IMG/VR virus record: IMGVR_UViG_3300027747_003534
Span: 1-64,000 of that record
Strand: one strand, 5' to 3'
DNA length: 64,000 nucleotides
DNA from: a virus
The translations under genes and the position numbers were made by a program. The stretch's first letter is position 1, and every line of letters starts with the position of its first letter. The notes beneath the pieces are model-generated. The model ran no database searches, was not told the DNA's origin, and saw only the letters and a program-made list of their open reading frames with translations. Shown piece by piece: positions 47,422-64,000 of the stretch.

Positions 47422-50400
47422 ATGAGCAAAGGATTTAATCTTACAGCAGAAATCAACTTGCGCGGTCCTTCAAATATAAGGACTGTTGTTGCGGATATTC
47501 GCAGGCAAATTGGATCTGTATCCGCAGATATTACTCCGGTAGTTACTAGACAATCTGTCCGTAATGTTGCTAGTGTAATAAGAAGTCAGCTGTCTAATAT
47601 AATATGTGATGTTAAGATCAAAGCCAATACATCATCATTAAGAAGTATTGGATCAGATATAAGAAGACAGTTAAGTGGGGTTAGTGCTAATATTAACGTT
47701 AGGGCCAATCAGTCATCAATAAGAACAATGGCGGCTGACATCAGAAGACAATTAGGATCAATTAATGCTAATGTTAATGTTAGATTCAATACTACTGCTG
47801 TTACAACATATAGTAACAATTTAAGAGGATTAAATGCTAATCTTAATCAGATAATAACCTCAGCCACCAATGCTACAGGAGCCATCAATGCTTTAGCTGC
47901 TGCAATGAGAAGTGCATCAGCTGCTGGATCGGCTATTAATAATACTGCTATAAATGTTGGAAATGTTAGCAGGGCTGCGAATAATACTAGAAATAGCATT
48001 ACTCTAGCATCCAATGAAATGGTAGAGTTTGGTCGTCAATCCGGCTTAGCATTTAGAAGATTTTCAGCTATTACAACTGTTACAAGTGTTATATATGGAT
48101 TAACAAATGCTGTTAGTCAGGGTGTTAAATCTTTTATAGATTTTGATTTGCAAATGACTCGCATATCTCAGGTAACTGGTGATTCAAGAAATAAATTAGC
48201 TGATGTGGCAAATACTATTACAGATTTATCTACTAAACTTGGTGTTTCTTCTAATGAGCTAACAACTACCACAGTAACTCTTGCACAGGCTGGTTTAACG
48301 GCTAAAGATACTGCTACGGCGCTCAAAGCTTTGGCTCTTAGTGCATTAGCTCCATCATTTGATGATATGAATCAAACTGTAGAAGGATCTATTGCTTTAA
48401 TGAGACAGTTTGGTATAGGAGCAAATCAATTAGAAATGGCACTAGGTAGTGTTAATGCTGTGTCTGCTAAGTTTGCTGTTGAAGCTAGTGATATTATTAC
48501 TGCTATTCAGCGTACTGGTGGTGTGTTTGCTGCTGCTAGTAGAGGAGTAAGCACAGGCACAGAAGCATTAAATGAATTTATTGCTGTATTTACCAGTATC
48601 CGAGCTACAACTCGTGAAAGTGCAGAAACTATTGCTACTGGTTTAAGAACTATTTTTACTAGAATTCAAAGAGCAGGAACTATCGAAGCATTACAAGAAT
48701 TTGGAGTTACATTAACTGATTTAGAAGGTAAATTCGTAGGTCCCTATATTGCGGTTCAAAGACTTAGTGAAGGACTAAGCAGATTAGATCCACGAGATCT
48801 TAAATTCTCACAGATAGTTGAAGAATTGGGCGGCTTCCGTCAGATCGGCAAGGTGCTACCACTTATTCAACAGTTCGCAACTGCTCAAGACGCATTAAAG
48901 GTTGCTCAACAGGGCCAAGGATCATTAGCAACCGACGCGGCAAAAGGACAATTAGCTTTAGCTATTCAGATTCAGAAAGTGAGAGAAGAATTTCTTGCTC
49001 TTATTCGTAGCATTGGAGATACTAGTAGTTTTCAAAATATTGTAAAAGTTGGTTTAGATTTAGCCAGCGCTTTAATAAAGGTGGCTGATGCCACTAAGGG
49101 AGTTTTACCATTATTAACTCTGTTTGCTGCATTTAAAGGAATCACTGCGGCCACTCAATATATAGGTGGTTTTAGTCAAGGAATCAGAGGAAATGGTGGA
49201 GGAGCCAGAAGAGCTAATGAAGGTGGTCGTATATATGCTTTTGCTAGTGGTGGATTAGTACCAGGATATGGAAATGGTGATACTGTATCGGCAAAATTAA
49301 CTCCTGGTGAGTTTGTGATGAGCAAGCCAGCAGCACAAAGCATAGGAGTTGGTAATTTACATTCTTTGAATAGGAGTCGTGGAGGATCTATATTCCCCAA
49401 AAATTATTATCAGGGTGGGGTTGCAGCTTTAAAATCACTGTCTCCAGGAGAAAGTGGAAATAGAATCTCAGACTATATAGATTATTACGAGAATGAAACA
49501 AGCAAGACCAGCAAACAAAAAACAGGAAGAAAAAATAAATTAAACAGACAATCACCGAAAATGCTTAGAGGTTTTCAGCTCAAAGATAATGTTAATTCCG
49601 ATATAGAGAGAAGAGTTATTGGGGAATCAGAAATAAAAGAAGCTGTTGCAAACAATGCGAATTTTAGACGCTATATTAATAGTAGAGCAGCCAAAGATAA
49701 GAGTAGAGAGTTCTATGCTGCTCAAGGCGTAGCTTTTGAGGAGTTTTTATTTCAACATATTCTTGAGGGAAAACAATATGAAAAAGCACCCAAAAACAAC
49801 TATCCTTTAGATTTTATACCAAAGACTCCCGGATTACCTCCAGTTGAAGCTAAATTTACTTACGAGCAAGTTCCTGATGCATTTATTTTAAACAAACGAT
49901 TAAGATATAACTTATTGCGTCGTAATAACGAAAAAATATCTCCTTTAACCAGGAAGCAGAAACCCGACAATATTCAATTGGGTCCAACAATTGTATATGA
50001 AATGGGACCTGGATTAAAAAACAAAATCTTTACTCCAAACTCAAGTGAAAGCCAAAAAAGAGGAAGAGAAGAAAGAGCTCAGAAGAGTTTATTAAAAATT
50101 GATAAACTTGGTTTAGAACGTAATAATGGTGGATCTATACAAAAATTCGGTATTGGTGGAAGTACTGACGCTATATCAACATATAAAGCAACTTCTATGA
50201 AACTTAATAGAAGTCTAATGCTTGGAACTCCATTAACTAAAGAAGAACAAAAAAATGTTAAAGATTTAAAAAAACAAACCACAGATAAATTACCAAAACA
50301 ATTATATTCTGGTATTGGAGAAAATAGACTCAATCTGATTAAAAATCAAGTTGGCGATAAGCTACCAAAATCGGTTGGCAAATCATTTACATTACCTGGA

Positions 50401-64000: not shown

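Follow-up and report, generated by a model that had tools for sequence, protein, structure and literature searches.

Can the tail tape measure of a phage double as a carrier of enzymes for the infected cell? The question is raised by a stretch of phage DNA of 64,000 nucleotides (the window), in which a preliminary description noticed a very long open reading frame (ORF) with a tape-measure core followed by enzyme-like domains and proposed that the latter are injected into the host. All features described below lie on the plus strand; nucleotide positions are those of the window unless the contig is named, and residue numbers are those of the giant protein.

The giant gene and its family

On the 161,520-bp contig, the ORF listing gives a single ORF of 7,794 aa (47422 to contig position 70806), of which the window holds 47422..64000; there, the reading frame (47422..63999) is still open at the end. 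The start is placed by colinearity with the closest relative from residue 1. The preliminary description had covered 5,526 of these residues, and its claim of one ORF of at least that length holds on the whole contig. The extreme length and the internal repeats could be taken as signs of an assembly artefact or of read-through across several genes, but the frame runs through 23,382 bases without a stop, and copies of the repeats share at most 21 identical bases, too few to confuse an assembler. Moreover, proteins of the same architecture occur in hundreds of independent assemblies (ENA, JGI, NCBI, and Logan), and the identical 7,794-aa protein is present on three contigs. Among metagenomic proteins, we found at least 612 relatives of 3,039 to 9,671 aa that have the same core at roughly 50 to 99% identity, together with 1,695 shorter proteins that have it in the same identity range. 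As more than 600 independent metagenomic proteins carry the core, the giant ORF is real, and chance and misassembly are excluded as its source; to the artefact explanation we assign a negligible probability. The complete short relatives measure 1,958 to 2,450 aa (on contigs of 50 to 160 kb), and most of the shortest complete ones show the core, two copies of a repeated module, a match to the central scaffold, and the C-terminal tail.

The N-terminal core (aa 1 to 582; 47422..49167) was matched by PF10145 at aa 265 to 469 (E = 1.7e-21; 77.5 bits against a cutoff of 33.2 [Pfam]), by TIGR01760 at aa 224 to 535 (E = 1.8e-24; 86.4 bits against a cutoff of 28.8 [NCBIfam]), and by 11 PHROG tape-measure families within aa 23 to 845. 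All three collections thus support the tape-measure core that had been placed at about 48130 to 48950, and by its sequence, the giant protein is a genuine tail tape measure. The NCBIfam scan of the giant protein returned nothing besides the tape-measure domain, and a phmmer comparison of the whole protein with the PDB gave nothing useful. Only remote tape measures matched the core in the isolate collection, the nearest being of the SPbeta type at about 26% identity. The phage itself is known from metagenomic sequence and is uncultured.

Two ORFs of 108 and 296 aa (46101..47335 [ORF list]) lie directly upstream of the giant gene. In all eight relatives looked up (DNA for six, L004-L010), the gene likewise comes after two ORFs, of about 100 and 290 aa; large ORFs follow downstream, and the synteny is conserved. 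From their position only, the two upstream ORFs sit where tail assembly chaperones would and are putatively assigned this role; the pair had no family match in Pfam or PHROGs, and with the same collections, the neighboring ORFs matched no recognizable family of sheath, tube, protease, or chaperone proteins. Likewise, no protease domain was found in the giant protein, and five upstream, one downstream, and three further-downstream ORFs had no significant match. Pfam scans detected no muralytic domain in the giant protein, and simple motif searches for metalloprotease, kinase, P-loop, and RNA polymerase signatures gave nothing convincing.

A conserved frame with exchangeable inserts

We compared the giant protein with 119 relatives (120 proteins when the one from this phage is counted). 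By this comparison, about 2,000 of its residues form a conserved frame, and about 5,800 belong to exchangeable inserts. The frame has three parts: the core at the N terminus, an Ala/Gln/Gly-rich scaffold in the center, and a C-terminal tail of 83 residues. Residues 1 to 650 are common to all 119 relatives, except for the variable aa 51 to 100, while the scaffold is common to 47 to 115 of them, and the tail clusters with that of 93. Most inserts, on the other hand, are common to only 0 to 17 of the relatives. The scaffold (aa 1931 to 3043; 53212..56550) is also present in the shortest complete relatives. The stretch at about 53200 to 56600 had been described as Gly-rich and hydrophobic; the first part of this stands, as the composition is rich in Gly (and in Ala and Gln) and poor in Pro, whereas the hydrophobic part comes down to one segment (aa 2250 to 2273).

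Inserts occupy two sites. Between the core and the scaffold lies an enzyme cluster, in the order nuclease-like segment, ADP-ribosyltransferase (ART), helical segment, HAD phosphatase, nuclease-like segment, and ART; between the scaffold and the C-terminal tail lies a row of mostly unknown inserts. Self-comparison revealed a module of about 70 aa that fences the large inserts in nine clear copies and one or two degenerate ones. Clear copies in the window are copy 1 (aa 583 to 700; 49168..49521), copy 2 (aa 3044 to 3159; 56551..56898), copy 3 (aa 4116 to 4231; 59767..60114), and copy 4 (aa 5090 to 5202; 62689..63027). The degenerate copies (aa 1830 to 1876 and aa 1892 to 1914; 52909..53163) scored 11.9 and 3.5 bits with the module hidden Markov model (HMM) on this stretch alone, the second being weak. 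Copies resemble each other in protein and not in DNA (73% amino acid, 67% nucleotide, and 46% third-position identity). Shorter joints of the form GGxI[QR][KR]F..GG flank the ART domains. The module profile had no match in the PDB at E values up to 10, and an AlphaFold model of module 9 plus the C-terminal tail, built from 16 sequences, had a mean pLDDT of 57.6, with the module part below 50; the module is therefore not predicted to fold alone.

The preliminary description had suggested looking for variable cargo between conserved linkers in related phages, and this is the pattern that emerged, with the frame in 119 of 119 relatives, most inserts in 0 to 17, and, in the closest relative, breakpoints at the modules. 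That relative (P0002) is 95% identical over aa 1 to 928. Colinearity with it stops inside module 3 (aa 4199) and restarts at module 5, and the body of the first ART is replaced between two short GG joints. These breakpoints show, at the sequence level, that inserts exchange at modules. Across the family, 751 intermodule segments fell into 129 clusters, 80 of which were singletons. The composition of the inserts is unlike that of the Ala/Gln/Gly-rich scaffold.

A further property is common to frame and inserts. The giant protein has 1 cysteine in 7,794 aa against 111 expected from the remainder of the proteome (1.42%; P ~ 7e-47), and the top 120 relatives have 0 to 4 cysteines each. Selection against cysteine along the whole chain is strong. 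Frame and inserts avoid it to the same degree, which points to a single constraint common to both.

Enzyme-like domains and large inserts

Both ART domains that had been proposed are upheld, each scoring above the Pfam gathering cutoff for PF03496 (23.4 bits). ART 1 (aa 901 to 1095; 50122..50706) reached 31.1 bits over about aa 920 to 1058, and ART 2 (aa 1511 to 1712; 51952..52557), its paralogue at 36 to 39% identity, reached 34.0 bits over about aa 1588 to 1671. One has the motif FLSTS with EKE, and the other has FLSTS with EAE. The STS and ExE motifs of ART 1 align with those of C3larvin and ExoT, and those of ART 2 align with CdtA; both motifs are retained in almost all of the 28 copies of the ART family. 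At the expected arginine site, ART 1 has LYSG, and the canonical first-strand arginine is replaced by Ser or Thr (LY[ST]) in 28 of 28 copies, the position being set by spacing from STS. Another arginine lies 5 to 7 residues downstream of LY[ST]. Because the canonical arginine is absent, activity is uncertain, and we describe the two as predicted ART-fold domains of the C3/VIP2-type clade with a variant triad. Their similarity to Alt-like PHROGs is marginal (E = 0.0089). ARTs need NAD+, a cytoplasmic compound, and this requirement points to action in the cytoplasm.

The HAD phosphatase domain (aa 1255 to 1420; 51184..51681) is equally well founded, with all four catalytic motifs and a confident model with a Rossmann-like core. 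The motifs in this protein are DFDKT (aa 1275 to 1279), TARP, AKLKA, and FVDDN, and over 60 segments, DFD[KR]T, TARP, K, and VDDD are near-invariant. In the model (pLDDT of 80 to 95), the predicted phosphatase fold is confirmed: nearly all of the top 50 Foldseek matches listed were HAD enzymes. The best structural match was the T4 Pnkp 3'-phosphatase (Z = 11.3; root mean square deviation of 3.0 Å over 126 aa), followed by Pnkp1 (Z = 10.7) and AphA (Z of about 10), so that the leading matches differ by no more than about 1 Z unit; acid phosphatases of classes B and C are near-tied (Z of about 9 to 10). No stand-alone homologues of the domain were found. Upstream of it, a helical segment (aa 1096 to 1254; 50707..51183) occurs in 22 relatives. 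Its model has helices at a pLDDT of 73 to 86 over about aa 1105 to 1183, followed by a low-confidence stretch. A scan of IMG/VR with aa 1101 to 1510 yielded no confirmed relative.

For the two PD-(D/E)xK-like segments, the outcome is divided. The E...D...(D/E)xK pattern is present and conserved, but the proposed fold did not receive support: the model of segment 2 has helices only, at a pLDDT below 50, and Pfam matched neither segment. Segment 1 (aa 715 to 900; 49564..50121) has the motifs AFEEF, PLDF, and VEAKF, conserved in 12 relatives. Segment 2 (aa 1421 to 1512; 51682..51957) has AFQES, IDFP, and TDAKR; a comparison of 60 segments showed conservation of E, DFP, and TDAKR, and hhalign indicated a weak relationship to segment 1 (E = 4e-4). 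The language-model neighbors of segment 1 in the ESM Atlas were PDDEXK_14 and Tox-REase-7, at a subthreshold score of only 0.84. An exhaustive HMMER search of 1.84 billion proteins with segment 1 gave 11 matches, nine in tape measures of 3,012 to 7,872 aa and two in proteins of 703 to 736 aa at the same position, plus one weak match of 527 aa; no clear stand-alone relatives were among these 1.84 billion proteins. The nuclease identity of both segments is thus a motif-level assignment.

Beyond the scaffold, the blocks of about 1,000 aa that had been noticed in the window proved to be intermodule segments of 956, 858, and 834 aa. The 956-aa insert (aa 3160 to 4115; 56899..59766), between modules 2 and 3, belongs to no known family, with no significant Pfam or PDB match and no usable ESM Atlas match; 46 of 119 relatives (47 of 120 proteins) fall into its cluster, mainly by matching the C-terminal third of the insert. 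The 858-aa insert (aa 4232 to 5089; 60115..62688) likewise belongs to no known family, with one hydrophobic segment (aa 4375 to 4393) and no significant Pfam or PDB match; its cluster is found in 16 of 120 proteins and is missing from the closest relative. The 834-aa insert (aa 5203 to 6036), with a cluster of 7 of 120 proteins, starts at 63028 and continues past the window end at 64000. Beyond the window, it carries EF-hands (EF-hand_1; E = 1.8e-9 [Pfam]) at about aa 5648 to 5734, or contig positions of about 64,360 to 64,630. These EF-hands were all that Pfam found in the large inserts and the scaffold, and most inserts have no detectable family.

Proposed delivery through the tail

The tail of this phage probably delivers preformed enzymes to the host before the DNA enters, as judged from the architecture described above. 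The full chain, or processed pieces of it, would be lodged in the tail lumen and expelled ahead of the DNA, as with other tape measures; once in the host cytoplasm, the ART and HAD domains would do their work ahead of all phage gene expression, and the modules may serve as processing or docking points that release or organize the inserts. With moderate confidence, we favor as the best overall explanation that this is a genuine tape measure with a frame and swappable inserts, which is packaged and expelled ahead of the DNA and whose enzymes act in the host; delivery is the inferred part of it. The volume of the chain sets a constraint that the preliminary description did not raise. By our arithmetic, three copies of 7,794 aa would take up about 3.1 million cubic angstroms; a tail 300 nm long with a bore of 4 nm would have about 80% of its lumen filled. 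Therefore, the tail would be far longer than the frame predicts, or inserts are lost, or inserts reside elsewhere. If the whole chain counted at 0.15 nm per residue, the tail could reach about 1.2 μm.

Tail length is generally proportional to tape-measure length, which favors a reading in which the whole chain is the ruler of a tail of about 1.2 μm and the inserts are length filler, their enzyme-like parts having little or no role in the host. The same direction is indicated by the packing arithmetic, which favors tail length growing with the total residue count, by the absence of the canonical arginine from the ARTs, and by phages P23-45 and P74-26, whose tape measures of 5,002 aa go with extremely long tails (nearly 1 μm in P74-26 [PMC10770324, PMC10034513]). 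Mere filler, however, fits poorly with different inserts in phages whose cores are 95% identical, with family lengths of 1,958 to 7,872 aa, with an insert composition unlike that of the scaffold, and with HAD motifs near-invariant in 60 copies and STS and ExE retained in almost all 28 ART copies. A long tail and cargo delivery are moreover compatible, as in P23-45, and we regard the filler reading as unlikely. That the inserts act in the cell envelope instead, forming a trans-envelope channel, binding calcium, or degrading or modifying periplasmic substrates, likewise seems improbable to us. Calcium, the ligand of EF-hands, is plentiful outside the cell, cysteine avoidance suits an oxidizing compartment, and the Class B and C acid phosphatases near-tied with the HAD domain (Z of about 9 to 10) are periplasmic or surface enzymes. 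Yet the NAD+ that ARTs need is cytoplasmic, no muralytic domain was detected, and the top match of the HAD domain is a polynucleotide 3'-phosphatase, even though the known enzyme domains of tape measures are cell wall hydrolases, as in T5 pb2 and several further phages (cited in PMC12617516).

It is also conceivable that the chain is a polyprotein for expression only, from which the inserts are cut off at the modules before or during assembly, so that they remain unpackaged and act in the producing cell or are discarded. In lambda gpH and T5 pb2, cleavage takes place close to the C terminus, and lambda virions may lose three of the six copies of gpHC, the fragment cut from gpH in a Gly-rich region near its C terminus (PMC12617516); the packing problem would vanish as well. 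We nonetheless consider this account very unlikely. Cysteine is avoided equally in frame and inserts, as one shared constraint would predict, and a late structural gene is an odd site for nonvirion proteins. In addition, the conserved C-terminal tail lies beyond all inserts, and therefore, frame and tail are joined only via the inserts; the equivalent end of the lambda protein binds the tip, residues 818 to 849 of gpH contacting the hub protein gpI (PMC12617516).

Compared with known systems, the delivery reading has a published single-enzyme precedent in Thermus phage P23-45, where the tape measure gp96 (5,002 aa) includes, as a fusion, the virion RNA polymerase responsible for transcription of the pre-early genes (PMC10770324). 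In P23-45, as in P74-26, G20c, and TSP4, a giant tape measure and a cytoplasm-acting enzyme share one chain, and joint entry of the two, before or along with the DNA, has been proposed (PMC10770324). There, the enzyme is a single N-terminal RNA polymerase, whereas here we find a changing array of module-fenced inserts with ART and HAD domains; a motif search found no D[FYW]DGD motif in the giant protein. Our literature searches on tape measures with ARTs, with effector or polyvalent-protein cargo, or of giant size returned only the P23-45 case. Enzyme domains embedded in tape measures are an accepted principle from muralytic examples (T5 pb2 in PMC12617516; TM4, PMC1796659; and SPbeta YomI), which act on the cell wall, while the enzymes here point to cytoplasmic substrates.

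The polyvalent proteins of mobile elements (Iyer et al. 2017; PMC5512222), to which the preliminary description had referred, similarly unite many unrelated effector-type domains, ARTs included, in one giant chain with a role predicted at the moment of entry. The effector-type domains here are two ARTs, the HAD domain, and the EF-hands, in addition to the unknown inserts. Polyvalent proteins are predicted to travel in the capsid (MuF/portal) or by type IV secretion, whereas ours is a tail protein. ARTs are among the hubs in that paper, from which tape measures and a module-fenced layout are absent (PMC5512222), and our Pfam scans, which can miss divergent copies, detected none of the other hub domains (MPTase, ArdC-N, SNF2, N6A methylase, MuF-C, and PBECR). 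With tape measures missing from the defining paper and no non-ART hub domain detected, assigning the giant protein to this class would not be justified. MARTX toxins (PMC6315884) offer an analogy only: in these giant chains, the two ends are conserved, while the effector domains in the middle vary and are exchanged between strains. MARTX toxins are bacterial and secreted, and a cysteine protease domain releases them, while the protein here has one cysteine, and a protease was not detected in it. The sequences of MARTX toxins and the giant tape measure are unrelated.

T4 Alt is a virion-packaged ART, a head-borne separate protein that modifies host proteins before phage gene expression. An ART that is proposed to be particle borne and to modify the host early is common to both cases, but Alt is head borne and separate, and the ARTs here are of the C3/VIP2 type by HMM and lack the canonical arginine. 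Should the inserts indeed reach the cell, phages would have, besides capsid ejection proteins, a further route for importing ready-made enzymes, namely, the tail tape measure; this route would be modular, re-equipped in evolution by insert swaps at a fixed joint. The hundreds of family members would then be a large pool of uncharacterized candidates for host-takeover or antidefense proteins. There is also a physical puzzle, as either tails are longer than any known or the lumen holds far more protein than assumed.

The module resembles a region that ordinary tape measures have as a single copy, such as in the C-terminal fragment that lambda gpH loses by cleavage when the tail matures. It matched gpH residues 754 to 776 by BLASTP (E = 5e-6) and residues 750 to 783 by hhalign (E = 3e-4), the latter being the region that module copy 1 resembles and lying inside gpHC, and each of the two proteins has a short tail at its C terminus. 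The match covers few residues and is weak, and lambda has one copy of the module against nine clear and one or two degenerate copies here. The matching region of gpH is not visible in lambda structures (PMC12617516). More speculatively, a gpH-type module could be a portable loading and release signal, such that any protein between two modules would be threaded into the lumen as the tail is assembled, cut free or unfolded at the modules, and expelled into the host, which would make the tail a programmable multieffector secretion device; we hold this idea tentatively and as rather doubtful. The same module might also account for the cleavage of lambda gpH, and it provides a sequence handle on the decades-old question of how and why gpH and T5 pb2 are cleaved.

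A giant tape measure protein and its relatives

The open reading frame that starts at position 47422 has no stop codon through base 63999 in the ORF list of the window; on the single 161,520-bp contig whose first 64 kb form the window, the frame ends at 70806, giving 7,794 amino acids (aa). Three libraries agree on the tape measure identity of its N-terminal part: Pfam (PF10145, aa 265 to 469; E = 1.7e-21), NCBIfam (TIGR01760, aa 224 to 535; E = 1.8e-24), and PHROG, in which 11 tape measure families matched within aa 23 to 845. The preliminary description had proposed one long ORF with a tape measure core followed by enzymatic domains, which the tail would deliver to the host. 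As an observation this is confirmed, and its interpretation is partly supported.

Using aa 1 to 700 as the query against proteins of 3,039 to 9,671 aa, we obtained at least 612 matches. In the best 120 of these, the core is 53 to 100% identical, protein length ranges from 3,044 to 7,872 aa, and the contigs reach 235 kb; for one, the label gives a Sphingobacteriia genome bin as the source. A repeated module of ∼70 aa is present in three to nine copies in all of the 120 but one, and its first copy invariably marks the end of the core. When the protein was tiled against 119 relatives, aa 1 to 650 were common to all of them (except for a variable stretch at aa 51 to 100), the central scaffold (aa 1930 to 3050) to 47 to 115, and the last 200 aa to 74 to 114, whereas the large inserts between modules were mostly common to 0 to 17. 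The 751 intermodule segments formed 129 clusters, of which 80 were singletons; core and scaffold clusters alone were universal, and C-terminal tail clusters occurred in 94 of 120 proteins. When shorter proteins were searched, complete relatives of only 1,958 to 2,450 aa turned up on contigs of 50 to 160 kb, and most of these proteins show the core, two modules around a short block, a scaffold match, and the tail. Because these complete short relatives are built in this way, we estimate that the frame (core, scaffold, and tail) accounts for ∼2,000 aa and the inserts here for ∼5,800 aa.

Exchange takes place at the modules. The closest relative is 95% identical over aa 1 to 928; colinearity with it ends at aa 4199, where the third clear module copy (start at aa 4116) finishes, and is back at aa 6058, within the fifth copy (start at aa 6037). 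Furthermore, the body of the first ADP-ribosyltransferase domain (ART 1) is swapped between two short joints. Variable cargo between conserved linkers, which the preliminary description had suggested looking for in related phages, is thus what the family displays: a common frame, differing inserts, and, in the closest relative, breakpoints at modules or joints.

An 834-aa insert contains an EF-hand pair at about positions 64,360 to 64,630 of the contig, beyond the window (about 1,360 to 1,630 of the adjoining stretch, L001; EF-hand_1, E = 1.8e-9), and EF-hand matches are listed in the precomputed Pfam annotation of four relatives (P0011, P0016, P0020, and P0024). In a relative's locus (L010), a Phage_cement gene (PF22758; 2203 to 2673) sits with head genes, upstream of the giant gene by ∼7 kb, and the virion-module setting of the family is thereby confirmed.

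The repeated module and lambda gpH

Self-comparison gave the module consensus GGxIYA..G.L..YQPRGTDTVPAMLTPGEFVVN..AT..NLPLL..IN...S.GG..Y, with copies starting at aa 583, 3044, 4116, 5090, 6037, 6210, 6924, 7315, and 7600 and one or two degenerate copies at aa 1830 to 1914. The copies share 73% amino acid, 67% nucleotide, and 46% third-position identity, with identical runs of 21 bases at most, which indicates that they are maintained by peptide-level selection rather than recent DNA exchange.

Copy 1 matched residues 754 to 776 of lambda gpH (BLASTP E = 5e-6), and the module profile matched residues 750 to 783 (hhalign E = 3e-4; probability, 39%), a short yet specific match. Near the C terminus of lambda gpH, a cut in the Gly-rich region separates gpH* from gpHC (roughly residues 690 to 853); residues 818 to 849 bind the hub protein gpI, residues 690 to 817 are unresolved, and neither the site of cleavage nor the responsible protease is known (PMC12617516, a 2025 structural paper). 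As the match falls within gpHC, the module corresponds to a part of ordinary tape measures beside an unexplained processing event. Since no independent fold is predicted for it, the module may be a linear or assembly-dependent element.

Enzymatic domains

The whole enzyme cluster (window positions 49489 to 52557) is highly basic, its net charge being about +72 over aa 701 to 1712, while the scaffold is neutral. Joints (GG[SIN]I[QR][KR]F..GG), shorter than the module, lie on either side of the ART domains, and a fifth is found at about aa 1915. Both ART domains score above the Pfam gathering score of 23.4 (31.1 and 34.0 bits), and self-comparison identifies them as paralogues (36 to 39% identity). 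Their STS and ExE motifs align with those of C3larvin, ExoT, and CdtA. The aromatic-Arg motif is LY[ST] in 28 of the 28 copies found in the family, and the retention of this variant suggests that the ART domain may be a working one.

The HAD phosphatase has no Pfam match; despite this, we found four HAD motifs (DFDKT, TARP, a Lys, and FVDDN) that are near-invariant across 60 aligned segments of relatives. An AlphaFold model of aa 1096 to 1512, built from an 8-sequence alignment, had a pLDDT of 80 to 95 across the HAD part, and HAD enzymes were nearly all of the top 50 PDB matches listed by Foldseek. The HAD assignment therefore stands. By VIA-align, the modeled fold matched the T4 Pnkp 3′-phosphatase (Z = 11.3; rmsd, 3.0 Å; 126 residues), Pnkp1 (Z = 10.7), and AphA (Z of about 10), effectively a tie. 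T4 Pnkp heals cleaved tRNA, and the near-tie with polynucleotide 3′-phosphatases suggests, as a lead only, work on nucleic acid ends.

The two PD-(D/E)xK-like segments (aa 715 to 900 and 1421 to 1512) retain the E...D...(D/E)xK pattern and show a weak relationship to one another (hhalign E = 4e-4), but the fold was not confirmed: the model of segment 2 had a pLDDT under 50, and language-model neighbors of segment 1 with this fold were sub-threshold only. Among 1.84 billion proteins, segment 1 had no clear relatives beyond tape measure proteins.

Proposed delivery, packing, and neighboring genes

The nearest published case of an enzyme fused into a giant tape measure is P23-45 gp96, a 5,002-aa protein fused to a virion RNA polymerase, by which pre-early genes are transcribed (PMC10770324). 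Polyvalent proteins similarly carry many effector domains per chain, in a paper that does not mention tape measures (PMC5512222); their hub domains other than ART were not detected in this protein. The classic example of a virion ART, T4 Alt, is carried in the head instead, and MARTX toxins, with conserved ends and a variable effector array, are a good analogy. The literature searched contained no description of tape measures with insert arrays fenced by modules.

The chain or its pieces would occupy the tail lumen and, as other tape measures do, leave it ahead of the DNA; the ART and HAD domains would be active in the host cytoplasm, where we place ART action because ARTs require NAD+. By our arithmetic, if each residue takes about 133 cubic angstroms, three copies of the chain fill ∼3.1 million cubic angstroms, against ∼3.8 million in a tail 300 nm long whose bore is 4 nm. 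It follows that tail length scales with that of the entire protein, that the inserts are removed, or that they are located elsewhere than in the lumen. Scaling would give a tail of up to about 1.2 μm; the P74-26 tail, nearly 1 μm and called the longest known in the account in PMC10034513, is shorter.

The tape measure has a single Cys (aa 62), compared with 111 expected from the other ORFs of the contig (1.42%; P of about 7e-47), and the best 120 relatives have 0 to 4 each. This avoidance is specific to the tape measure, as other virion-module proteins of the contig contain Cys (0.2 to 2.2%). It covers frame and inserts alike, from which we infer a constraint shared by the whole chain, e.g., passage in an extended or unfolded state and contact with oxidizing surroundings. 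A downstream 2,278-aa ORF (contig 83163 to 89999; 3163 to 9999 of L002, a further stretch of the contig) is the opposite, being Cys-rich (2.15%), and has no Pfam match. Only two segments of the tape measure are strongly hydrophobic, one in the scaffold (54169 to 54240; aa 2250 to 2273) and one in an insert (60544 to 60600; aa 4375 to 4393), and these could be membrane-inserting elements.

Upstream, among fibre-like genes, lies a second giant ORF of 4,126 aa (22848 to 35228, plus strand), the sole Pfam match of which is a He_PIG Ig-like domain (aa 1343 to 1429; E = 6e-6) and which, unlike the tape measure, contains 0.70% Cys. A 1,049-aa collagen-like tail fibre protein (13299 to 16448, plus strand) has very strong repeated PHROG tail-fibre matches (phrog_819; E = 3e-88). 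The three successive ORFs at 16452 to 19851 (plus strand) have near-equal lengths (378, 375, and 376 aa) and may be tandem paralogues. An N-terminal motif of ∼50 aa, present in two further plus-strand ORFs (5915 to 6808 and 40706 to 41701), matches many tail fibre and spike PHROGs at their N termini (phrog_697 and phrog_27786) and is probably a common attachment domain.
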